Positions 15,534 through 58,385 of a stretch of DNA of 64,000 bases are shown here, in pieces. Position 1 is the stretch's first letter; each line of letters begins with the position of its first letter. The stretch is from Bacteroidales bacterium (GTDB lineage Bacteria; Bacteroidota; Bacteroidia; Bacteroidales; JAYRGN01). The notes beneath the pieces are model-generated. The model saw nothing but the letters and a program-made list of their open reading frames with translations, was not told where the DNA came from and did not search any database. The DNA is taken from assembly GCA_041907825.1 (NCBI GenBank), contig JAYRGN010000002.1, forward strand, positions 124,924-188,923. Reading direction: 5' to 3'. The position numbers and the translations under genes were made by a program.

Positions 15534-16934
15534 CTATTCTTTTCTTTTGAGTGTAATCATAATAACGCCGTTTCGCCCATCTTCTCCGTAGGTTATAATG
15601 GCGTTTTCATTTTTTAACACACTGATCGACTCAATATCCTCTGAATTTATTTTACCGATCTCTTTAAAAGAAGTTCTTTTTCCGTTTACAATACAAAGTG
15701 GTTGATTTGTATTGTTTTCTTGTTGCTGGTCTTTATGCGAAACAACCACACACAGCGTTTTTTTGTTTTCTGAAGAAACCGTGATGGCTTTGGTTGAGTC
15801 ATTGCAAACCGTGATGGTTGTACTTGTATTTGCCAGATTCTGATCTTTAACGTCCTTTATAGTAATTTGTTTTCCATTAACATAAACAGTTGTATTCTCT
15901 GGTAATGAATTGACTGTTACTTCAACGGGTGGAACAGGTGGAGCAGGAGGCATAGGCGGAGTAGTGGGTGCGGATGCTATTGGCTCTGAAACCAGTGTAT
16001 CAGTAAGTGATGCAGAACCTGGCTGAGTGGTGTTGGCTTGTATTGCGTTTTGAACGGATGAGGTTTGTGCAATAACAGTTCTTTCGGTTGTTGCGGTAAG
16101 AACAAACACTACAGCTACCGGCACGAGGAGCGCAAAGTTTTTCAATAGGTGCCATTTCGGAGATTTAGACTTGTTCATCATTTTGATTCGTTTTTTTAAA
16201 AGATTGGTAATAAAATGATTGGCAATCAACAGGCGTTGCCCGCCCATTGCTGTTTGCAGAAGTGAGTATTGGTAGCTTCTGGCTTCTGTTCCATTTATGA
16301 TGATTTGATTGTCAACAATATACTCATGATTTTGAGCAATTGCTTTTTTTAACCACCAAGCAAACGGATTGAACCACTGAACCATTACAATCATTTCGGC
16401 AAGAAACAGATCAAACGAATGGTACTGCTGGCAATGTACCGTTTCGTGCTGAACTATTTGTTCGATATCGGGATGTTCCCTGTATTTATCGGGAACGACG
16501 ATCCATTTGATTAATGAAAATGGTAAAACATTTATTGGCGTGATTGCGAGTATATTCTTACCAAGTTTCTGTTTGTCGGCATTCTTTACAAGCTGAAAAA
16601 CTTTTCGGTATGCCCAAATGAGGCGAAACAGCATAATCAAAATTCCTGTTAAGAATGAGAAAGTGAATAAGTTGTAAAATAAGTCAGTACGAGATAATGT
16701 TGACGAATGAGCGGTGCTGGTGGTAACCTGAAGGGCTTCAACTGGTAAATATACCACGTGTGTGCGAAACGGAATATTGATAAGCGGAATGAGGAACGGT
16801 GCAATTAATGCACATAATAAATAAAACCGATTGCGTACAAACAGTGTGTCGTTGCTAAATAGCAGCTGGTACCCAATATAGAAAATGGATATCCCTAAAG
16901 CTACTTTCAGATTATAAGCGAGCAGCGTGTTCAT
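15534..16934 (-). CDS. BlaR1/MecR1-like M56 peptidase signal transducer with Pro-rich linker and TonB-dependent-receptor-plug-like C-terminal domain
   Basis: 466 aa; N-terminal TM helices; HETVHCQQYH (HExxH) and downstream NHEYIVDN; linker PTTPPMPPAPPVPPVEV; C-terminus SEDIESISVLKNENAIITYGEDGRNGVIMITLKRKE; 4-nt overlap with the upstream BlaI-like gene. Confidence 0.85.
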   Translation of the reverse strand: MNTLLAYNLKVALGISIFYIGYQLLFSNDTLFVRNRFYLLCALIAPFLIPLINIPFRTHVVYLPVEALQVTTSTAHSSTLSRTDLFYNLFTFSFLTGILIMLFRLIWAYRKVFQLVKNADKQKLGKNILAITPINVLPFSLIKWIVVPDKYREHPDIEQIVQHETVHCQQYHSFDLFLAEMIVMVQWFNPFAWWLKKAIAQNHEYIVDNQIIINGTEARSYQYSLLQTAMGGQRLLIANHFITNLLKKRIKMMNKSKSPKWHLLKNFALLVPVAVVFVLTATTERTVIAQTSSVQNAIQANTTQPGSASLTDTLVSEPIASAPTTPPMPPAPPVPPVEVTVNSLPENTTVYVNGKQITIKDVKDQNLANTSTTITVCNDSTKAITVSSENKKTLCVVVSHKDQQQENNTNQPLCIVNGKRTSFKEIGKINSEDIESISVLKNENAIITYGEDGRNGVIMITLKRKE

Positions 16935-17293
16935 TTTTTTCCTTTTTCGATCAGATTAATAATTTCTTTTAAGTCGTCGACGCTAAGTTTCTCTTCCTGA
17001 GCAAAAAATGAAACAATTTCTTTATAAGAATTTTCAAAATAACTGTCAACAAAGCCCGAAAGGAAATTGCTGGTATATGCTTCTTTTGTGATAAGCGGAT
17101 AATACTCGTATGTGTTGCCATAGGTTTTATGATCGACATAATTTTTAGCTTCGAGGCTGCGAATAAGCGATGAAATTGTATTGTAATGAGGTTTTGGGTC
17201 GGGAAAATTGTCGAGAACATCTTTTGCAAATCCTTTTTCTATTTTCCAGAGTGCCTGCATTGCTTTTTCTTCTTGTCTTGTAAGCTTTTCCAT
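16931..17293 (-). CDS. BlaI/MecI/CopY-family transcriptional repressor
   Basis: 120 aa; winged-helix N-terminus LTRQEEKAMQALWK...YNTISSLIRSLEAKNYV; paired with an M56 transducer, the classical arrangement. Confidence 0.9.
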   Translation of the reverse strand: MEKLTRQEEKAMQALWKIEKGFAKDVLDNFPDPKPHYNTISSLIRSLEAKNYVDHKTYGNTYEYYPLITKEAYTSNFLSGFVDSYFENSYKEIVSFFAQEEKLSVDDLKEIINLIEKGKK

Positions 17294-17309
17294 AAATCAA
17301 ATCAATTTG

Positions 17310-17324
17310 TACATTGCAAATGTA
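17310..17324. promoter_or_regulatory. candidate BlaI-family operator, palindrome TACATT-gca-AATGTA
   Basis: Perfect 6-3-6 inverted repeat containing the TACA/TGTA half-sites known for BlaI/MecI operators. It lies 17 bp upstream of the blaI-like ATG and overlaps its -7 box. Confidence 0.5.
17317..17324 (-). promoter_or_regulatory. Bacteroidota -7 promoter box TAcaTTTG for the blaI/blaR1-like operon
   Basis: Plus-strand caaatgta is TACATTTG on the minus strand, 24 nt upstream of ATG 17293. Confidence 0.45.
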
Positions 17325-17485
17325 AACGAAAAAAACAGTTTTACAACGAAAAACTTCGTTTTAAAACTAATTATTTCGTTAGTTGTTGAAATTTAGTAAA
17401 TTGAATAGCGCAAAAGAATCTTACTGTAAGCCTATGAAGAGTAGCGATAAGCTTCTTTAATCAGCTAACCTTTTATTGTTGAAGT

Positions 17486-17520
17486 GACTTTACCGATTTG
17501 TAAAACGACTTTACCGATTT
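17486..17520 (+). promoter_or_regulatory. direct repeat GACTTTACCGATTT x2 with 21-bp period, candidate LytTR-type activator site upstream of the LiaF-like/LytS/LytTR operon
   Basis: Identical 14-mers at 17486-17499 and 17507-17520, 28-62 bp upstream of the TAcaTTTG -7 box at 17548. Confidence 0.45.
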
Positions 17521-17547: not shown

Positions 17548-17555
17548 TACATTTG
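17548..17555 (+). promoter_or_regulatory. -7 box TAcaTTTG for the LiaF-like/LytS/LytTR operon
   Basis: Matches TAnnTTTG, 39 nt upstream of ATG 17594. Confidence 0.45.
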
Positions 17556-19437: not shown

Positions 19438-20187
19438 ATGCCCATACGAACTTTATTAATAGAAGACGAACAACCCGCCCGCGAACTGGTTAAACATTTC
19501 TTGTCCGGCTCGGACGATGTCGAAATTATTGGCGAATGTGCCGATGGTTTTGCCGGACTGAAAGCTATTCAGGATTTAAAGCCTGATCTGGTTTTTCTTG
19601 ATATTCAGCTTCCTAAACTTACAGGGCTGGAGTTGCTCGAATTGCTTGAAAATCCGCCGGTGATAATCTTTACAACTGCCTACGATCAATATGCAATTAA
19701 GGCTTTTGAGATGAGCGCTTTGGATTATTTGCTTAAACCTTTTTCTCTTGAACGTTTTAATGCTGCACTTGATAAAGCCCGTCAGCGAATTGTTTCAGGG
19801 ACGAGCGATAAGCCTGTTGTTGACAAGTTGCTTCAGCATCAGAGTGAACAACCCGGATTTCTTGATCGCGTGGCCATAAAGTCGGGAAGCCGGATTCATG
19901 TTGTTTCAACAGCTTCTATTCGCTACATCGAAGCTCAGGACGATTATGTAATGATTTACTGCGCAGAAGGTAAGTTTCTGAAAGAAAAGACTATGAAATA
20001 TTTCGAGGCTCATCTCGATCCGGATATGTTTGTCCGGATTCATCGTTCTTATATTATTAATGTACATGAAATTAAACAGATCGAACCTCTTGAAAAAGAA
20101 AGCTACGTGGTAATACTGAAAGATGGCGCCAAGTTAAGGGCCAGTGCTACCGGCTACAAAACATTAAGGGAAAGACTGGGTTATTAA
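19438..20187 (+). CDS. LytTR-family response regulator
   Basis: 249 aa; receiver domain (LLIEDEQ, DLVFLDIQLP, LLKPF); C-terminal LytTR DNA-binding domain (IRYIEAQDDYVMIY...FVRIHRSYIINV). Confidence 0.92.
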   Translation: MPIRTLLIEDEQPARELVKHFLSGSDDVEIIGECADGFAGLKAIQDLKPDLVFLDIQLPKLTGLELLELLENPPVIIFTTAYDQYAIKAFEMSALDYLLKPFSLERFNAALDKARQRIVSGTSDKPVVDKLLQHQSEQPGFLDRVAIKSGSRIHVVSTASIRYIEAQDDYVMIYCAEGKFLKEKTMKYFEAHLDPDMFVRIHRSYIINVHEIKQIEPLEKESYVVILKDGAKLRASATGYKTLRERLGY

Positions 20188-21489: not shown

Positions 21490-22680
21490 TTATTTATATA
21501 AACGCATGCAGACTCTGCGGTTTTTTGCCCTGCCTGTTTCCGTTTTGTTATCGGCCAACGGGTTGGTGGCTCCGGCACCGTTTACAATCAATCTGTTTCT
21601 GGCAACACCTTTGGTTTGAAGATATTGTGCAACACTTTCGGCACGATTAACCGACAAGGTTTTATTCTTATCGAAAGAGCCTGTATTGTCGGTGTAGCCG
21701 GTTATTTCAATTTTAAAATCGAAATAACGGTTTACTGTTTCGGCGATGTTGTTAAGTGTTGACCTCATTTCGGGACTGATGGTGCTTGAATTAATGGCAA
21801 ATTCGGTGTTTGGCATAAAAAGCGAGGTGTTATTCGTGCTCTTTATCTCTGCATCTTTTTGCAGATCGGCTAATAACCTTTTATTTGTAATGCTGTCGGG
21901 TTCTGGTTTTCCTGAAGATTTAAACGAATTTGCGTTGAGCAGAACAGCCGAATCGTAAAAACCATCGCCAACATCGGCAATGCTTAGCTTGATGTGATAA
22001 ATATGGTAAGGAATCAGTTTAAAACCTGCCGATAACTTAGTGGTGAGCCCGTCGAATTGCAATGCCGAATGCAGGCAGCCATATTCGCTGTTATAAGGAT
22101 ATGAATTGGACACGTAATAGTTGTTGTTCGTCTGATCGTTAATGGTATTGATGCTGACCGGAAGCTGATTGCATGTTGCGATATTTTTGCAGGTATTGCT
22201 TGTTTTGTCGGTAACAAAAAAACCGAAAACGTCGTTAACGCCTTTGTTTACATATTCGGGATATTCTTCGGATGCGAAAATGTATTCGAATGCAATGCTG
22301 TCGCTGTTTGCTTCAAAGTCGAATTCGAGCGAAACTGCATCAAACGTTTTGCCTTGTGCGAGTATTTCTAACTCTTTATTGCCCGGTTCGTAGTTGTTTG
22401 TCCCGTTGTTTTGCCTGTCGTTGGGACCAATTATATCCCAACTGTTACCCGTCGAAAGAACAATTCCTTTTGCAAGAGGCAAATCTTTGCAATGATTGAC
22501 AAAAACGCCGGATGCAAATTTGTTTCCCGTATAACGAATATTAAAAGTGCGAATAGACTGACTGTTCTGAACAAAGTTTCTGACGAGATAGTTCGGGGTA
22601 TTGCAAGTATCAATAAGAATCTGCGAAAAAACGGACAGATGTAAGCTTAACAAGACAAACAGTAAAAAAGGTTTTTGCAT
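21490..22680 (-). CDS. choice-of-anchor-L domain / OmpA-family peptidoglycan-binding protein
   Basis: 396 aa; signal peptide; N-terminal GIVLSTGN...SLEFDFEANSDSIAFEYIFASEEYPEYV...NDVFGFFV blocks; C-terminal OmpA motif TGYTDNTGS...NRRV. Confidence 0.8.
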   Translation of the reverse strand: MQKPFLLFVLLSLHLSVFSQILIDTCNTPNYLVRNFVQNSQSIRTFNIRYTGNKFASGVFVNHCKDLPLAKGIVLSTGNSWDIIGPNDRQNNGTNNYEPGNKELEILAQGKTFDAVSLEFDFEANSDSIAFEYIFASEEYPEYVNKGVNDVFGFFVTDKTSNTCKNIATCNQLPVSINTINDQTNNNYYVSNSYPYNSEYGCLHSALQFDGLTTKLSAGFKLIPYHIYHIKLSIADVGDGFYDSAVLLNANSFKSSGKPEPDSITNKRLLADLQKDAEIKSTNNTSLFMPNTEFAINSSTISPEMRSTLNNIAETVNRYFDFKIEITGYTDNTGSFDKNKTLSVNRAESVAQYLQTKGVARNRLIVNGAGATNPLADNKTETGRAKNRRVCMRLYK

Positions 22681-22793
22681 AAGGCTTTTATAAGCAGAGA
22701 TAACCCAAAGACTTGTTTTGGCAAAGTAACATTCTATTTTTAAAAACTTTTATCCGTGCATCTGAAAAATTAAACAATAGCAAATAAGAAAAC

Positions 22794-23045
22794 TTACATT
22801 TTTACTAACAAAGGAACTATTGTTAACAAGAATGGTTCCTTTCTTGTTAACAATACAACCATTCTTACTAAAAATGTAACCATTCTTGTTAAGGATACAA
22901 CCATTGATGCAAAGAATGGTTCCTTTCTTAATAAGAATTGAACCATTCTTATTAAGGATACAACCATTCTTGCTAACAATGCAACCATTGTTGTTAAGAA
23001 TGCAACCATTCTTGTTAAGGAAACAACTATTGTTAACAAAATTGA
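22794..23045. repeat. tandem array of 12 x 21-bp units (consensus AACCATTCTTGTTAAGGATAC) with an 84-bp super-period and internal inverted copies
   Basis: Hand alignment shows an exact 21-bp register with no indels from 22794 to 23045. Terminal units are degenerate. GAATGGTTCC at 22830 and 22914 is the reverse complement of the unit head. Confidence 0.9.
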
Positions 23046-23205
23046 GAGAAGGGTAACGAAAACTGTGTGGATTGCTGTTTCTGTCCGAACCGTTGACGAT
23101 AAGGAATGAACCTTTTACCGGATGTTTTTAAGAATTGACGGCGCCAGTAAAAATTGGCGAAAAGACTAACGAAGGTAAGGGTTGAAGTAAGCCGGGTTTT
23201 GCATC

Positions 23206-23246
23206 AAATATAAAATAGCAGAGACGAGCACCGGTCCCGTCTCTGC
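23206..23246 (-). terminator. intrinsic terminator after the dsbD-like gene
   Basis: Stem gcagagacg / cgtctctgc (23218-23226 / 23238-23246). The plus-strand A/T-rich run caaatataaaata gives a U-rich tract on the minus transcript. Confidence 0.6.
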
Positions 23247-23258
23247 AAAAAGTTCAGC

Positions 23259-25301
23259 TTATTTTTTAAACGCTTTAATGCCGGCATCCAGAAAATCGGC
23301 AAACGCTTTTACATCATAATTCGCACCCGAAGGCTGTTCAAGCAAATTTCCATCGGAATCGAGCAAAACATAAAACGGTTGTGAGTTTGAGTTGAACCGC
23401 GAAGCCTGCAAATCACTCCATTTATTCCCAATTGTTTTAATGCTTTTGCCGCTGAGTTTCGAAACCGTTTGTTCTTCTTTGGCCAGATCCTTTTTGTCGT
23501 CAACATAAAGCTGAATAACAACAAAATCGTTCTTTAATTTCGAAAGAACCTGCTGGTCTGGCCAGACTCCTTCTTCCATTTTACGGCAGTTAACACAGGC
23601 ATGACCGGTAAAGTCAATGAACACAGGTTTGTTTACTTTCTTAGCATAAGCCAGACCTTCGTCGTAATCAAAGAAGGCATCGATGCCAAGAGGCGCATGA
23701 AAAAGATCGCTGTATTTATGGTTGCCGGTAGTTTTCGATTCATCGTTTCTCGATAAGTCGAAATCCTGAGTGGTTTTGGGAGGCAAAAAGGCCGCAATCG
23801 ATTTAAGCGGAGCGCCCCAAAGTCCGGGAATCATATAAATGGTGAAAGACAAAGTTATAATGGCCAGCATTAAACGAGGCGTCGAAACATGTTTTAAATC
23901 GCTGTCGTTAGGGAGTTTAAGTTTGCCAAGAAGGTAAATGCCCAATAAAGCGGAGATAACAATCCACAAAGAAAGGTAAACCTCTCTGTCAAACCAGTTC
24001 CAGTGATAAGCCAGATCGACATTCGATAAGAACTTAAGCGACAGAGCCAGCTCCAGAAATCCTAAGACAACTTTTATACTGTTAAGCCATCCGCCTGATT
24101 TGGGTAAAGCTTTCATCCAAGCGGGAAACATTGCGAAAAGAGCAAAAGGAAGAGCCAAAGCAATGGCAAAGCCCAGCATGCCAATGGCAGGACCGAGCAA
24201 CTGTCCCATTGTAGCCGCCTGAACAAGCAACGTTCCGATAATAGGACCGGTACACGAAAATGAAACTAAGGCAAGCGTAGCCGCCATAAAAAATAAACCG
24301 GCCCAGCCACCTTTTTCCGATTTACTGTCCATCTTATTAATCCACGACGAAGGCAGAACAATTTCAAAAGCACCCAGAAAAGACAAGGCAAAAACGACTA
24401 ATAATAAGAAAAAGAAGAAATTAAAAATGCCATTGGTCGAAAGATCATTGAGAGCATCGGCACCAAAAAGGACAGTAATGAGAAGGCCGAGAACAACGTA
24501 AATAACGATAATTGAAAGTCCATAAATCAGCGCATTGAAAATGCCTTTGCTTTTAGAGCTTTCTTTTTTGGTGAAATAACTTACCGTAAGCGGAAGCATA
24601 GGAAAGATGCAGGGCATAACAAAAGCGGCAAAACCACCTAACAGTCCGGCAATAAAAATAGCCCAAAGCGATTTCTTTTCGTTAGCAGGCGCTTTTACTA
24701 AGGTATTTGCCGGTTGAACTTTTACGGTAGAATCGGCAGGTTTTGCGGGTGCCGTCTGCGCTAAGGCTTTAGCGGTATCGGCTGCGGGTTTGGTCTCGGT
24801 GGCAGAAGTTGTGGCGGCAACCGTTTTATCTGTAGTTGCAGCTTTTGCGCCTTTTACCTGAAAAGAAAAATCGACATCCTCGGGAGGCAGACATTGATTG
24901 TCGTTGCAAACCATGAACTCGAGCGTTCCTTTTATTGTAGTTGCCGGAACTTTCAGTTTGATTTTTTGAGTAAAAACGGCTTTTTTTTCAAAAAAAGACA
25001 CGTCCATGTTAAACGCTTTTTCAAAGACTTTCTTCGGCTTGGGAGATTCGCTTGCTTTGCCAATTAACTGATAATCGGCAGAAGGAGTGAACTTAAAAGA
25101 AGTCGGAATTGGCCCGCCATCGGCAATAAACTGAGAGTATAAGTGCCAGTTGTTGTCAATTTTTGCAGTAAGCGTAAGCTCAAATTCCTGATCGCCCGTT
25201 TGTTTAGACGAAAAACTCCAGCTTACCGGCTTTAATATTTGCGCCTGAGTCATTAGTACACAACTAAGCAGCAAAAGAGAAAAAAGAAGCTTCTTTACCA
25301 T
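23259..25301 (-). CDS. dsbD: thiol:disulfide interchange protein DsbD-like (N-terminal domain, cytochrome-c-biogenesis-type TM core, C-terminal thioredoxin)
   Basis: 680 aa; signal peptide; TM core with FVMPCIFPMLP and FSCTGPI cysteines; C-terminal thioredoxin FTGHACVNCRKME (CxxC). Confidence 0.85.
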   Translation of the reverse strand: MVKKLLFSLLLLSCVLMTQAQILKPVSWSFSSKQTGDQEFELTLTAKIDNNWHLYSQFIADGGPIPTSFKFTPSADYQLIGKASESPKPKKVFEKAFNMDVSFFEKKAVFTQKIKLKVPATTIKGTLEFMVCNDNQCLPPEDVDFSFQVKGAKAATTDKTVAATTSATETKPAADTAKALAQTAPAKPADSTVKVQPANTLVKAPANEKKSLWAIFIAGLLGGFAAFVMPCIFPMLPLTVSYFTKKESSKSKGIFNALIYGLSIIVIYVVLGLLITVLFGADALNDLSTNGIFNFFFFLLLVVFALSFLGAFEIVLPSSWINKMDSKSEKGGWAGLFFMAATLALVSFSCTGPIIGTLLVQAATMGQLLGPAIGMLGFAIALALPFALFAMFPAWMKALPKSGGWLNSIKVVLGFLELALSLKFLSNVDLAYHWNWFDREVYLSLWIVISALLGIYLLGKLKLPNDSDLKHVSTPRLMLAIITLSFTIYMIPGLWGAPLKSIAAFLPPKTTQDFDLSRNDESKTTGNHKYSDLFHAPLGIDAFFDYDEGLAYAKKVNKPVFIDFTGHACVNCRKMEEGVWPDQQVLSKLKNDFVVIQLYVDDKKDLAKEEQTVSKLSGKSIKTIGNKWSDLQASRFNSNSQPFYVLLDSDGNLLEQPSGANYDVKAFADFLDAGIKAFKK

Positions 25302-53538: not shown

Positions 53539-54417
53539 TTAATATTCCCAAAGATCTTGTTCGTATTCAAAAATACTATTTTTGATTCTCTCTGATTCAT
53601 ATAACTGATGAACGTTCTGAGTATATTCCTGAATTTGACGATTGTCATAAACGTTTGATTCTGCAATAATTCGACTTCCGAACCTTCTTTGTAAGAAGAA
53701 ATCATCGAATGAAATGGGCTGAGAATCGTTATTAGTATTATAAACCATATGGTTGGCGAAAAGCGGTCTTACCTCAGGAAAGTAGATCCAGAAAGTTTGC
53801 GTTTTAACCAACTCATCAGTTGGGTTCCCATTTTGATCTTCTCTGTATGTAATACGAATAGGGCATAAACCTATTATACGTACTTGTAATGTTGAGTAAT
53901 TGCGATCAAAAAACCAACGTTCTTTAATTAAAAGCTGTTTAACATCGTCTTTGCGACGTTTAAATTGAACAACAGTGTCTTTTGATTCTCCTTGTTCATT
54001 TGTTGCTTTTATCCTTTTTTCTCCAGCACCCATTAATCTTTCAAGCTTTTCTTTAGTAATAACTTGCTTGAACTCATTTTTTGTGTCAATATCAGGGTCG
54101 TAAGCTGTCAAATTATACTTATCAATACCTTCCAGTAAAAGGTCAATAAGACTCATTCTGTCCCCAATAGGTCGTGTCGGAAAATATAAAGGCAAATTTT
54201 GTTTTTCCCTTAGGTCTACTATTCTCCAAATTGTTTTTGACCACATTACATCTGCCTCACGTGTATAAGGGTAAGGAACTAGTTTCTTGTTCGGTATGTG
54301 TTCATTTACATACACTTCTTTCAGGCGATCAACATTGTCCTGAGCGTACACCCCTGTTGTAGCCAGTAACATGGTTATTCCAATAAATAAAAACGATTTT
54401 GCCTTCATAGCGTACAT
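53539..54417 (-). CDS. gldN: gliding motility / T9SS protein GldN (PorN)
   Basis: 292 aa; signal peptide; last gene of the gldK-L-M-N cluster; conserved ERWFFDR and WIYFPE blocks. Confidence 0.85.
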   Translation of the reverse strand: MYAMKAKSFLFIGITMLLATTGVYAQDNVDRLKEVYVNEHIPNKKLVPYPYTREADVMWSKTIWRIVDLREKQNLPLYFPTRPIGDRMSLIDLLLEGIDKYNLTAYDPDIDTKNEFKQVITKEKLERLMGAGEKRIKATNEQGESKDTVVQFKRRKDDVKQLLIKERWFFDRNYSTLQVRIIGLCPIRITYREDQNGNPTDELVKTQTFWIYFPEVRPLFANHMVYNTNNDSQPISFDDFFLQRRFGSRIIAESNVYDNRQIQEYTQNVHQLYESERIKNSIFEYEQDLWEY

Positions 54418-54426
54418 TTTTTTCTA

Positions 54427-56049
54427 TTATTTCAATGTTATAGTAACAGGCGTTAATTCACGAACTTGTGTTCCTACAACTGCTTTTATTTCACTAAAAT
54501 ATAATTTAGTGTTTTTTGCTCCTCTGTTGATATATTCTTCCATTTCCGTAGTTAATTTGTTGGATTTGGAAACAGATTCTTTATTATACCCTCCAACTGT
54601 CAATTCCATTTTAAATGAAACAACACGGCAATTAAGTTCAAAATCAAAATTTTCCATTTGAGCAATGGCAAAAGGTGAAGCAAGAAGCATCTCTTTCGAT
54701 AATCCACCACCTTTAGATCCGCCTATTTTTGCAACAGGATCTGGTACTCCTTTTACTCGAAATGTTTTAGTTCCAATTACTTTTTTAGAGCCTTCTATTT
54801 CTGCATAAATTGTTATAACAGAAGATGTTCCATTTCCTGGATTTACCGCCCAGCCACCGTCCGCGGTTTTATTTATAGCCCCATTCGTAATAGTAGCAGA
54901 TATTTTATCAGAAGGAATACCTGGCACAGAAATATCTACAGGATTACCTCCCGGGACATCACGGTAAAATACATTCATTTTACTAGCTGATATTACAGCT
55001 GAAGGTTCGGATACTTGATATTCTGCACGAAATGATCGTGTTATATCAGCTCCACCATTGGGCGATTTTAACTTTATAAGACCACCCCACTTCCGGGAAC
55101 CTACCGCCCCACCTGTAACTGTATAGACTCCTTTGCCGTTTTTAACGGGAACAGTTTCATATGGTTGTCTCATTTTTAATATGTACGAACCATCGGGCTG
55201 GCGTATAGAATCATAAGACCCTATACAAATTTCTGGATTTTGAGTAGAATCGGATGCAGCAATAAAAATTTGGGCAGAATATTGATTTCCTTTTAAAACA
55301 TAATTAGATTTTGGTAATACAACTGCTTCTAATTTATTGAAAGTAAAGGCTCCTGCATCAATACTTGCATATAAATAGCGAAGAATGTCAGATTCGGCAT
55401 TTCTAACATTAGCTTGAAGACCAGATAATTCTGTAATAATTGCAATCAACGGAATATGCTCAAAGTTTTCTGTTTCCCAAGTCTTTCTTTCTCCATCTGG
55501 AGCAAGAGGAGGATCTTTCGTTTCTAAACTTTTTTCAATAGATTCTTTTACACTTTCAGCTTTTGGATCAAGCATCCCTACAAAAAAGGAATTAAGTTCT
55601 CCTATTTTTTTTCGCAAATCTTTAGATTTACCCTTGTTAATCATGATATTGGCAGGAATATCTTGGTTATCCTTTGAGTTGATTTTTAGAGGGTTTATTT
55701 TCCCTCCTTCTTCAATCGCTTCTGCTTTTTTTCCATCAGCCGTGGTAATTATCTCTATTTTTAAAGATTGAATATAATCTATTACCTCTTTTGTCTGTTT
55801 TTGAACTTGGTGAGCTAAATCTACATATCTTCCAGCCTTTGCATGATTTGTTATGTCTGCCTGAGCAAATGCAGAGTACATTAACTCATTTTTATCTTTA
55901 AAATTTTCAGTTGTTTTTGTCAAACCTGTATCTACATTAACAAAAGCGTTTAGTACTTCTTTTTGAACATTCAATGCTAACATTGCAGTCAAAAATAAGT
56001 ACATCATACCTATCATTTTCTGTCTAGGTGTCTCTTTTCCGTGCCCCAT
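54427..56049 (-). CDS. gldM: gliding motility / T9SS protein GldM (PorM)
   Basis: 540 aa; characteristic N-terminus GKETPRQKMIGMMYLFLTAMLALNV; single TM helix plus long periplasmic region. Confidence 0.92.
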   Translation of the reverse strand: MGHGKETPRQKMIGMMYLFLTAMLALNVQKEVLNAFVNVDTGLTKTTENFKDKNELMYSAFAQADITNHAKAGRYVDLAHQVQKQTKEVIDYIQSLKIEIITTADGKKAEAIEEGGKINPLKINSKDNQDIPANIMINKGKSKDLRKKIGELNSFFVGMLDPKAESVKESIEKSLETKDPPLAPDGERKTWETENFEHIPLIAIITELSGLQANVRNAESDILRYLYASIDAGAFTFNKLEAVVLPKSNYVLKGNQYSAQIFIAASDSTQNPEICIGSYDSIRQPDGSYILKMRQPYETVPVKNGKGVYTVTGGAVGSRKWGGLIKLKSPNGGADITRSFRAEYQVSEPSAVISASKMNVFYRDVPGGNPVDISVPGIPSDKISATITNGAINKTADGGWAVNPGNGTSSVITIYAEIEGSKKVIGTKTFRVKGVPDPVAKIGGSKGGGLSKEMLLASPFAIAQMENFDFELNCRVVSFKMELTVGGYNKESVSKSNKLTTEMEEYINRGAKNTKLYFSEIKAVVGTQVRELTPVTITLK

Positions 56050-56070
56050 TTTATACTAGAAAAAGTAGCG

Positions 56071-57030
56071 TTAACGTTTAGATGCATTCATTGCAGAAAG
56101 CATATTACCATAGATAGTATTAAGACTAGCTAAATTTTGGCTAAGTTTTGCTATCTCTTCACGATAAAGCTTCGTTTCGTCAACTGAAGATTGTAAATTT
56201 TTGAGCATCTCTTCCATTCCTCCGTAGAGTTGCTCTGTATTTTTTAAACTTTCTTGTGTCCCTTTTAATTGTAATTCATAAAGGGCATTAAGTTGGTCTA
56301 AATTTAATGTTAACTGATCTAATTTTTGTCCGTAACTTTTTCCACCTTCTGAAATTGAATTGTAATAAGCAGAAATTGAGTCGGTTAGCTTCTTGTAATT
56401 GTCTGTTAATAATGAACTGGAATTATTAAGCTGTTCAGCAACATGTTGCCCTGATTGTTCTACAATTCCTGCAACTTTTACATAGGAGTTACTTAATGCT
56501 CCCATTGCTGTATGTAATGTTTCGGTTGATGAAGAATAAGAATCAGTTAATTTGTCAAATGTCTGAGCTGCATTTTTTAAATTTTCTGAATATTGCTGAG
56601 CTGCAACGGTCGATTCTGTAATATCTGAAATTTTAGAAGCAGCTGATCCTAATTTTGAAAGACCTTCACCAACTCGATCTATCGCTTCTTCTGAGATATT
56701 GGATCCTCCAACTAGAGCGTCAAAACGTTCTAAATTTGTGCGATTCCCAATAATACCTTCCTTATAGGATTCCATTTCATCATCTTCTGTCATCCCTGCC
56801 AGTTCAGGGTATACCAAAGTCCAATCGAGTTCTTCATGTAATGGCTCAAACGCTGAGAAAAAGAAAATTAAGGCTTCTGTACATAAACCGACTGTAAGCA
56901 TAATCCCTGCACCAGGCCAATGCTGAATTTTGAATAACGCACCGATTAACACTACAGTTGCTCCCCAACCATAGACTTTTGCCATAAATTTTTTCCATCC
57001 AGTTGTCTCTACGAGCTCAGAAATATTCAT
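56071..57030 (-). CDS. gldL: gliding motility / T9SS protein GldL (PorL)
   Basis: 319 aa; characteristic N-terminus KFMAKVYGWGATVVLIGALFKIQHWPGAG...EALIFFFSAFEP (two TM helices) and a coiled-coil tail. Confidence 0.92.
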   Translation of the reverse strand: MNISELVETTGWKKFMAKVYGWGATVVLIGALFKIQHWPGAGIMLTVGLCTEALIFFFSAFEPLHEELDWTLVYPELAGMTEDDEMESYKEGIIGNRTNLERFDALVGGSNISEEAIDRVGEGLSKLGSAASKISDITESTVAAQQYSENLKNAAQTFDKLTDSYSSSTETLHTAMGALSNSYVKVAGIVEQSGQHVAEQLNNSSSLLTDNYKKLTDSISAYYNSISEGGKSYGQKLDQLTLNLDQLNALYELQLKGTQESLKNTEQLYGGMEEMLKNLQSSVDETKLYREEIAKLSQNLASLNTIYGNMLSAMNASKR

Positions 57031-57050
57031 GATCTAATAATTACTTGTTG

Positions 57051-58385
57051 TTAATTACTGTTACCTAAGAAAGAACGTACACATCGGAACCCTATATATG
57101 ATTTAGAGGTATCCTGATATTCGTAAGTACGGGCAGATGTTTGCATGTAATAAGCAATATCTTTCCATGAACCTCCTCTTACAACTTTTCTTTTTAGTAC
57201 TGGCGGATCATCCGGGCGAGCATTGTATTTATAATCTGGATTAAGATCGTGTGTATAGACATAAGCTGATTCATCATATGCGTTAGCGGTCCATTCTGAA
57301 ACATTTCCCGCCATATCATAAAGATTGAACTCGTTTGGCTCAAAACTAGCTACTTTCATACATGTCATGCCTCCATCGTCGCCATAACGACCACGCATTG
57401 GTTTAAAGTTTGCAAGGAAACATCCCTTGTTATTACGGGTGTACAATCCACCCCAAGGGTACATAGATAAAGCTAAACCTCCACGGGCAGCATATTCCCA
57501 TTCTGATTCGGTTGGTAACCGATAATCCTGAACAAAAGATTCCCCTGACTTATGTAAGGCATTGTTTAATAATTGAGTACGCCATATACAAAATGCTGTA
57601 GCCTGTTTCCATGATACCCCGACAACAGGGTAATTATCAAAAGCTGGATGCCAAAAGTACATTGTTGTTGCAGGCTCATTAAATGAATAGGTAAAATCCG
57701 CTATCCAACATAATGTATCTGGATAAACATTAACAACATCACGAATTACGAAAGAAGATCGATTTGTGATTTTTACTTTTTCTCCTTGTGCATTGATTAT
57801 CTGACCGTCGTATTGTTTTGTTTGAAAATTGTAGCGGTTACTTTTTTCAGCAGCTTGCTTTAAATCAACCCAGTAATACTCAAACATCAGTTTACGTGTG
57901 TCTATTTCTTTACGACGATAGAAACGTTCTTGATCAGACAGATAAAGATCTTTTACAGCTTCTGAAACTTCTTGTTCAGATAAATCTATTTTAGTTTCCC
58001 AATTAAGCATTGGAGGGTCAATGGGATTTCCTAATTCATCTTCTGAAATAATGAAATCTTGAATCTGATCTCCTAACATACGACGCATGATAGAATCACG
58101 GACCCAGTAAACAAACTGGCGATATTCATTATTGGTAATTTCTGTCTGATCGATCCAAAAAGCATCGACTGAAACGGTTTTACTCATTGTATTTTGAGCA
58201 TACGCAACTTCTTGATCACTAGGTCCCATGTTGTAGCTTCCCTGAGGTAAAAATACCATTCCGAAAGGTTCGGGCTCTGTGTATTTTTTTCGTCCAGACA
58301 CTCCTTCGAGTTCTCCACTGCCGGACGATCCGCCACAACCGTAAAGTATGGTTGCTAAAATACTGAAAATCAATGCCTTTTTCAT
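57051..58385 (-). CDS. gldK: gliding motility / T9SS lipoprotein GldK (PorK), FGE-sulfatase fold
   Basis: 444 aa; lipoprotein signal ILATILYGC; formylglycine-generating-enzyme-like blocks (VSWKQATAFC, LPTESEWEYAARGG, RGGSWKD). Confidence 0.92.
   Translation of the reverse strand: MKKALIFSILATILYGCGGSSGSGELEGVSGRKKYTEPEPFGMVFLPQGSYNMGPSDQEVAYAQNTMSKTVSVDAFWIDQTEITNNEYRQFVYWVRDSIMRRMLGDQIQDFIISEDELGNPIDPPMLNWETKIDLSEQEVSEAVKDLYLSDQERFYRRKEIDTRKLMFEYYWVDLKQAAEKSNRYNFQTKQYDGQIINAQGEKVKITNRSSFVIRDVVNVYPDTLCWIADFTYSFNEPATTMYFWHPAFDNYPVVGVSWKQATAFCIWRTQLLNNALHKSGESFVQDYRLPTESEWEYAARGGLALSMYPWGGLYTRNNKGCFLANFKPMRGRYGDDGGMTCMKVASFEPNEFNLYDMAGNVSEWTANAYDESAYVYTHDLNPDYKYNARPDDPPVLKRKVVRGGSWKDIAYYMQTSARTYEYQDTSKSYIGFRCVRSFLGNSN

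Follow-up and report, generated by a model that had tools for sequence, protein, structure and literature searches.

The repeat array and its locus

The tandem repeat described here lies in a stretch of 64,000 nucleotides (the window) of contig JAYRGN010000002.1 in assembly GCA_041907825.1, which belongs to a bacterium of the order Bacteroidales. It occupies part of a 578-bp intergenic gap between dsbD (23259-25301) and a choice-of-anchor-L/OmpA gene, hereafter the OmpA-like gene, which is followed by a LiaF_C-like gene and then a flavodoxin-like gene that complete its operon (Pfam). Read along the minus strand, the order is dsbD, its terminator, a variable spacer of 172 bp, the array, a conserved stretch of 113 bp and the three-gene operon, with the array placed 114-365 bp upstream of the OmpA-like ATG (Table 1). 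The array behaves like a young minisatellite of one uncultured Bacteroidota species.

The array measures 252 bp, has a G+C content of about 0.30 and consists of 12 units of 21 bp arranged head-to-tail, with the consensus AACCATTCTTGTTAAGAATGC. The original prediction, which was made from the letters of the window, had described twelve exact units; the number, the strict register and the absence of indels hold, but the copies are not exact, as they match the consensus at 12-20 of the 21 positions (57-95% identity) and are weak at both ends (12/21 in unit 1, 13/21 in unit 12). The consensus can be divided into a 10-nt box AACCATT(C/G)TT, two variable nucleotides, a 7-nt box TAA(G/C)(A/G)AT and two further variable nucleotides. 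Tandem Repeats Finder (TRF) reports the 21-bp period at 22841-23031 with 9.1 copies, 72% matches and 0% indels, and periods of 42, 63 and 84 bp over 22815-23036. The 84-bp period has the best score per base (2.1 copies, 81% matches), which bears out the predicted four-unit super-period. Self-match reaches 0.65 at a lag of 21 and 0.69 at a lag of 42, compared with 0.15-0.41 at the remaining lags. When up to three mismatches to the consensus unit are allowed, six matches are found in the window, every one within the array (0.00 expected), and there is no second copy of the unit or array elsewhere within the 64 kb.

Each copy of the 84-bp higher-order repeat (units 2-5 and 6-9) opens with a reversed box, AAGAATGGTT, at 22828 and 22912. 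The two reversed boxes and the four-unit duplication give rise to the long inverted repeats and the two long predicted hairpins of the array. The motif coordinates predicted earlier were right, with GAATGGTTCC at 22830 and 22914, AAGAATGGTT as above and TTGTTAACAA at 22820, 22844 and 23030; AACCATTCTT is found at 22857, 22878, 22941, 22962 and 23004. Underlying these motifs is a symmetry of the unit itself. The consensus is dyad-symmetric within the unit (CATTCTT-GTT-AAGAATG, that is CATTCTT-N3-AAGAATG) and again across unit junctions (AAGAATG-CAAC-CATTCTT, or AAGAATG-N4-CATTCTT), so that inverted 7-mers alternate along the array at intervals of about 10.5 bp. Its hairpins and palindromes exist because the consensus unit has this symmetry, and both the gene-like and the hairpin-like layers of the array follow from a dyad-symmetric unit of 21 bp.

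Among the 18 distinct internal units of the three known alleles, positions 3, 6, 10, 14, 15 and 18 are invariant and positions 11, 12, 20 and 21 are the most variable. Reckoned from the per-position counts, about 20 minimal substitution events are spread over 21 positions, for which about eight invariant positions would be expected by chance and six are seen. The "conserved boxes" can therefore not be distinguished from the shared ancestry of duplicated units, and an argument built on them fails, since the events fit a uniform distribution.

Variation among strains of the lineage

Contigs of the same lineage were reached in several metagenomes through exact and near-exact OmpA proteins, which gave a sample of one species-level lineage with three distinct alleles in four or five strains. 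The window allele of 12 units is common to contig L002. In L007 and L028, which come from two independent samples, the array has 13 units and equals the window array plus one, the extra unit AACCATTCTTAATAAGAATAC standing at the junction of units 9 and 10. The allele of L001 again has 12 units, with AACCATTCTTAATAAGAATAC present and window unit 10 missing, and the missing unit is not the same one in the window and in L001. The question of copy-number differences between strains, which the original prediction had raised, can thus be answered: 12 and 13 units both occur.

Sequence divergence adds to this picture. The L001 array carries 22 substitutions relative to the window and 19 relative to the 13-unit allele. 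Whereas L001 and the window are 97.3% identical over 9.2 kb (a mean difference of 2.7%), the array differs at 22 of its 252 bp (8.7%), and the OmpA gene beside it is nearly identical, with 0-2 differences per 250 bp. The excess of the array over its flanks is moderate, as one segment of dsbD reaches 7.6%. Coding sequence diverges most in this comparison at 24489-24988 in dsbD, where 250 bp contain 17-19 differences; the stretch coincides with the low-complexity linker of DsbD, which is rich in Ala, Thr and Lys. In L028 a window-like array is joined to a right flank (equivalent to 23046-23258) that shares several variants with L001, a mosaic suggestive of inter-strain recombination whose junction lies at the array or close to it.

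The array also leaves traces in assemblies and annotations. Four short-read contigs break off inside it (L002, L029, L031 and L032). Gene callers make hypothetical proteins from different frames of it, with a gene of 78 aa in L001 (3651-3887) and, where contigs end, partial genes of 66-125 aa in L002, L007 (2-379), L029 and L032. These called open reading frames (ORFs) are artefact entries in protein databases, and an exact cluster look-up of the protein collection returned no match for them.

Occurrence beyond the lineage

The array was searched for with the pattern AACCATTNTTNNTAANNATNNAACCATT, which has 21 specified bases and five matches in the window (units 4-5, 5-6, 8-9, 9-10 and 10-11). 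The pattern had four single matches in 185,579 species genomes and 12 in 241 million metagenome records, none of them in an array. All inspected matches were due to chance, several lying in hexapeptide-repeat (LpxA-like) genes and none showing a 21-bp periodicity. Viral contigs scanned with the pattern gave no match, nor did plasmid and phage collections searched by BLAST.

A sister species, in which OmpA is 78% identical, retains the whole operon and the adjacent two-component system. There, gldN lies upstream of the OmpA-like gene across a gap that is known by its length only, 342 bp. As this is less than the 114 bp plus the 252-bp array, a full-size copy cannot fit. In the window, gldKLMN (53539-58385) is 30 kb from the OmpA-like gene, whereas it is directly upstream in the sister species (P0002 contig); this relocation implies that the array-bearing gap is a synteny or rearrangement breakpoint. 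More distant OmpA orthologues lack both the synteny and a comparable gap. Genes for Y1-type transposases (PF01797, the family of REP-associated transposases, where REP stands for repetitive extragenic palindrome) occur near distant OmpA-like orthologues in two unrelated contigs, 1.6 kb downstream of the orthologue in L008 (5320-5781) and adjacent to it in L024 (5432-5863).

The favoured reading, a neutral minisatellite

The favoured reading, which stands at an even chance of being correct, is that the array is a lineage-specific, non-coding minisatellite, or variable-number tandem repeat (VNTR), that evolves neutrally. As is usual for VNTRs, the unit is repeated in tandem and is at least 10 bp long, strains differ by whole units, and the array changes faster than its flanks. 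Under this reading a quasi-palindromic 21-bp unit would have been amplified singly at first and later as a block of four units (84 bp). Present change would consist of the gain and loss of whole units together with the exchange of unit variants, by replication slippage or unequal recombination. Such processes would keep the 21-bp register without the need for a reading frame. The array would then have the dsbD terminator on one side and the promoter region of the OmpA-like/LiaF_C-like operon on the other, and any effect it has on that operon is probably incidental, either through spacing or because the array belongs to a long leader, rather than a dedicated sequence-specific mechanism. The earlier description of the locus as neither a normal gene nor a known repeat class is therefore half right: it is no normal gene and belongs to no catalogued repeat or RNA family, but it can be regarded as an ordinary minisatellite of variable copy number.

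Several observations weigh against neutrality. In a compact genome, an insert of 252 bp without function has been retained by each of the four or five strains sampled. Not one indel of 1-2 bp occurs in the 37 sampled units, where 1-2.5 would be expected, which is weakly surprising. Variation gathers at positions 11-12 and 20-21, as half-sites separated by spacers would predict, and a purely neutral origin leaves the dyad symmetry of the unit unexplained. The sampling is also thin, with three distinct alleles from one species-level lineage.

The practical consequences of the minisatellite reading concern annotation, where gene callers turn the array into hypothetical proteins, and assembly, where it breaks contigs built from short reads. 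The array could also help to tell strains of this uncultured Bacteroidota lineage apart.

A possible phased array of operators

The alternative that survives best, although it is unlikely, is that the array is a set of phased operators. Each unit would be a dyad site, ATTCTT-N3-AAGAAT, for a putative dimeric DNA-binding protein; with sites exactly two helical turns apart, 12-13 dimers could occupy the same face of the helix ahead of the OmpA-like promoter, and the copy number would tune the expression of the envelope operon. This would be consistent with a strict 21-bp register that is kept in all alleles and altered only by whole units, with the most variable positions being the two spacers, and with a location 114-365 bp ahead of the gene that opens the operon. 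The lack of covariation between arms agrees with it as well, as a protein-site model needs none. However, half of the 22 differences between alleles fall in the presumed half-site arms (unit positions 4, 5, 7, 8, 16, 17 and 19), just one other copy of the palindrome exists in the 64 kb and it is inside a gene, and the gap of the sister species has no room for a full-size array. In addition, the conservation pattern is not significant given the shared ancestry of the units.

A more specific and somewhat less probable version describes a strain-tunable platform in which a dimeric regulator, possibly one of the numerous uncharacterised LytTR proteins of Bacteroidota, would coat the 12-13 dyad sites cooperatively and control the OmpA-like/LiaF-like operon, with the gain of the response set by how many whole units are gained or lost. 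Were the locus an operator array, it would represent a phased binding platform of unusual size for a bacterial chromosome and a rare handle on the targets of the abundant LytTR/LiaF-like envelope systems of Bacteroidota.

A possible transcribed leader or small RNA

It is improbable that the array acts as RNA. In this scenario it would be transcribed from a distal promoter just past the dsbD terminator, either as part of an OmpA-like mRNA leader of about 520 nt or as a separate small RNA, and its small hairpins are proposed to act in cis or to bind a protein. Folding is predicted to be strong on both strands (z = -7.8 for minus and -8.4 for plus, against shuffles), and a motif scan of the gap found a sole exact TAnnTTTG on the minus strand, at 23212-23205 within the variable spacer and upstream of the array, which would be an alternative, distal promoter candidate. 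The strong folding, however, results from the palindromic consensus, and one TAnnTTTG in 578 bp is near the chance rate of 0.7 per kb per strand.

Covariation offers no help to the RNA reading. The intra-unit hairpin has no compensatory changes, fewer than in shuffles, and the junction hairpin has two compensatory cells, which is not above shuffles. Position 8 or 16 of the unit changes without its partner following, and about 80% of the cells pair solely through the palindromic consensus. The minimum-energy fold is not the same between alleles and the array is not followed by a terminator. Rfam gave no match at gathering score, the best being a microRNA model with 28 bits against a cut-off of 60; when the search was extended to E-values of 10, it produced sub-threshold matches of eukaryotic microRNA and small nucleolar RNA types only, which are caused by the hairpins and were rejected.

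Proposed boxes of the neighbouring LytTR regulator

A LytTR regulator is encoded in the neighbourhood of the array. An operon coding for a LiaF-TM protein, a histidine kinase (PF06580) and a LytTR regulator (19438-20187) converges on the OmpA-like operon, which is flanked by two LiaF-like genes, the kinase and the regulator, and this linkage is retained in the sister species. The units would then be boxes of this regulator, 2.6 kb away, through which it would control the convergent OmpA/LiaF_C/flavodoxin operon. LytTR sites consist of direct or inverse repeats of 9-11 nt, separated by 11-13 nt, without a common consensus (PMC4847170), and a 10-nt box AACCATT(C/G)TT every 21 bp fits this published geometry (PMC4847170).

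Even so, this assignment is very doubtful. The GTTAAG/GTTAAC core, which the original prediction had placed in most units, was overstated, as it is present in 6/12, and variability within the unit is greatest at its G and T. There are 12-13 repeats rather than a pair just upstream of a promoter, and two of the boxes are reversed. A better candidate site for this regulator lies elsewhere. At 17486-17520 there are two perfect 14-bp direct repeats, GACTTTACCGATTT, at a spacing of 21 bp (one match against 0.02 expected). They precede an exact TAcaTTTG box (17548-17555) by about 30 bp and the LiaF-TM/histidine-kinase/LytTR operon by 74 bp. With its textbook shape, the pair is a candidate autoregulatory LytTR site. 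The best cyclic match between the array unit and the pair, itself a putative site of the regulator, is 10/21, compared with a shuffle mean of 10.5. Of the predicted phased operator or LytTR array, only the agreement of the 21-bp period with LytTR geometry stands, while the position of the core, the number of boxes and the unrelated GACTTTACCGATTT pair speak against it.

A proposed repeat protein

Least probable of the alternatives is that the array codes, either as a recently decayed heptad-repeat gene or as a small repeat protein translated from an unconventional start in one of three frames, TILVKNA, NKNGCIL or LTRMVVS. Three frames are indeed open across the array, 21 bp is divisible by three and indels are solely of whole units. 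Heptads appear on both strands as a result of the 3 x 7 period and of a unit with only one stop triplet per strand, and the heptad "proteins" were concluded to be a by-product of the 21-bp unit. That a coding heptad should also be dyad-symmetric in its DNA would be an unlikely coincidence.

In the plus (TILVKNA) frame there is no ATG, GTG or TTG between the TAA at 22771 and position 23065. This start-less state, together with the TAA, the in-frame TGA, the 81-codon minus-strand ORF with its TTG start, the 578-bp gap and the LytTR gene, had all been described correctly. The TGA is shared by the window and the 13-unit allele (L007/L028) and is ACA in L001, where the plus frame is wholly open. 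TGA is an ordinary stop in this organism, where it ends 5/47 genes, and recoding was ruled out for this reason. The codon-usage score of the plus frame, 0.265, is on a par with that of real genes (mean 0.268) but is based on only seven distinct or effective codons. Its ratio of nonsynonymous to synonymous polymorphism (pN/pS) against L001 is 1.9 (1.91). The conservative substitutions noted earlier within heptad columns are better seen at the level of DNA, as the variable unit positions 11-12 and 20-21 are codon positions 1-2 of the plus frame, whereas position 3 is conserved.

The minus-strand NKNGCIL frame stays open in every allele and has a pN/pS of 0.47, which is not significantly below 1 and derives from just 22 differences. 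It shares with the plus frame the lack of any ATG, GTG or TTG, and it has neither a signal peptide nor an N-terminal region. Its peptide matches DUF3659 (E 4.7e-4) and DUF6799 (E 2.3e-3) in Pfam, below the gathering scores. AlphaFold2 gave a mean predicted local distance difference test (pLDDT) of 31.7 and a predicted template modelling score (pTM) of 0.18, although a single-sequence run is a weak test of the beta-solenoid idea. The LTRMVVS ORF is called by gene callers because a start codon is present; its pN/pS is 1.8 (1.82), its codon score of -0.15 looks like that of an out-of-frame sequence and its start moves between alleles.

Word-indexed searches of 5.8 billion proteins returned no match for the 81-aa ORF or the 125-aa NKNGCIL peptide. 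An exhaustive phmmer search gave 193 matches to unrelated low-complexity heptads of the form x-x-[ND]-G-x-[ILV]-[ILV], several of them eukaryotic, such as GRLIDEQ, SDSGSVL, NKDGCTW, VQNGTIL and TDKNGCI; one match that was inspected lies on a gene-sparse contig. These matches are analogous and not homologues. Neither the decayed or unconventional heptad gene nor the small hydrophobic protein that had been suggested thus finds positive support: the former lacks a start, is interrupted by TGA in two of three alleles, has pN/pS values of 1.9 and 0.47, no homologues and a pLDDT of 32, and the latter combines its pN/pS with a shifting start, an out-of-frame codon score and no homologues.

A few further candidates were rejected. 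An invertible promoter of the Bacteroidota type does not agree with the weak flanking inverted repeat (I9, 13/15) and the single orientation of every complete or near-complete copy (four copies, three alleles). A curved upstream element can be set aside as the array is predicted to be straighter than 88% of windows of the same size (wedge model). A plasmid or phage iteron or a partition site fits neither the neighbours, dsbD and the OmpA-like gene, nor the absence of plasmid, phage and viral matches, and readings as an origin of replication (oriC) or as parS were set aside on grounds of context and orientation.

Other features of the locus

The conserved stretch directly upstream of the OmpA-like gene likely holds its proximal promoter, to judge by a relaxed -7-like motif, TTACTTTG, at 22729-22722. 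Just below the array, 22737-22770 forms a 34-nt direct repeat of 74% identity with 23263-23296 in the last codons of dsbD, which could be the trace of a rearrangement or a chance product of A+T-rich sequence. A miniature inverted-repeat transposable element (MITE) or other insertion was rejected, as the flanking inverted repeat (13/15) and this direct repeat (74%) are weak and A+T-rich and the gap sequence occurs only once in the window.

Elsewhere in the window, a BlaI-type repressor gene (16931-17293, PF03965) accompanies a BlaR1-like M56 gene (15534-16934). The divergent gap beside the repressor gene contains a TACA...TGTA dyad, TTGTACATTGCAAATGTAAAC, at 17305-17325, which is likely a BlaI-type operator.

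Table 1. Positions of the array, its sub-features and its immediate neighbours in the window
Feature	Position	Strand	Basis or remark
Minisatellite, 12 x 21-bp units in strict register	22794..23045	.	TRF, consensus search, unit table, per-position counts
84-bp (4-unit) higher-order repeat, 2 copies (units 2-5, 6-9)	22815..22982	.	TRF, inverted repeats I1-I8, motif positions
Insertion point of extra unit AACCATTCTTAATAAGAATAC (L007, L028), junction of units 9/10	22982..22983	.	Allele comparison
TILVKNA heptad frame, judged not a gene	22774..23109	+	Start-less; in-frame TGA at 22939
NKNGCIL heptad frame, 125 codons, judged not a gene	22753..23127	-	Without ATG/GTG/TTG start
LTRMVVS ORF, TTG start, 81 codons, judged spurious	22794..23039	-	Gene caller: L001 yes, L028 no
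Choice-of-anchor-L/OmpA gene, first of the operon downstream of the array	21490..22680	-	Pfam
Conserved stretch directly upstream of the OmpA-like gene	22681..22793	-	1 difference/113 bp vs L001
Variable spacer, array to dsbD terminator	23046..23217	.	7 differences/213 bp (23046-23258) vs L001; more in L028
dsbD intrinsic terminator	23218..23246	-	11-bp stem with 7 G-C pairs, then T-rich run; judged good

Comparison with known systems

Repetitive extragenic palindromes and bacterial interspersed mosaic elements (REP/BIME) of enterobacteria are extragenic palindromes of alternating orientation, rich in G+C, of which hundreds of dispersed copies exist. The array resembles them in its serial short palindromes between genes, its place just past a terminator and its strong hairpin potential, and differs from them in having an A+T-rich unit with no other copy in 64 kb.

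Iteron and centromere arrays are bound cooperatively by dimers, as in the lambda ori, where the iterons have an internal dyad, or in pSK41 parC, where 20-bp repeats are bound by ParR. Like these, the array is built from tandem units of about 20 bp with internal symmetry, spaced by about two helical turns. Unlike iterons, it is near no rep or par gene, its neighbours are chromosomal housekeeping genes and its copy number is above that of typical iteron sets.

The known operators of LytTR regulators, such as AgrA at P2/P3 and YpdB at yhjX (GGCATTTCAT, with an 11-nt spacer), are repeat pairs close to a promoter. The array shares with them a box of about 10 nt every 21 bp and has a LytTR two-component system beside the downstream operon, but it comprises 12-13 units over 252 bp and its supposed GTTAAG core is its least conserved part.

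Repeat tracts that tune surface-protein genes, such as the 7-bp repeats that precede the Haemophilus hmw genes, slip frequently and are made of short units identical to one another. The array is likewise a repeat of variable copy number upstream of a gene for a surface or outer-membrane protein. As its units are 21 bp long and only about 72% alike, however, slippage should be rare.

Intergenic VNTRs of bacteria include the loci used in multiple-locus VNTR analysis (MLVA) and the mycobacterial interspersed repetitive units (MIRUs). From these the array differs by a unit that is internally dyad-symmetric, with two boxes reversed, and by a single-copy locus that belongs to no dispersed family and whose unit has no relative in any collection searched. 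In common with them it has head-to-tail units of tens of bp in an intergenic gap, divergence between units, copy differences of whole units (12 vs 13), a higher-order repeat (here of 84 bp) and short-read assemblies that break inside it.

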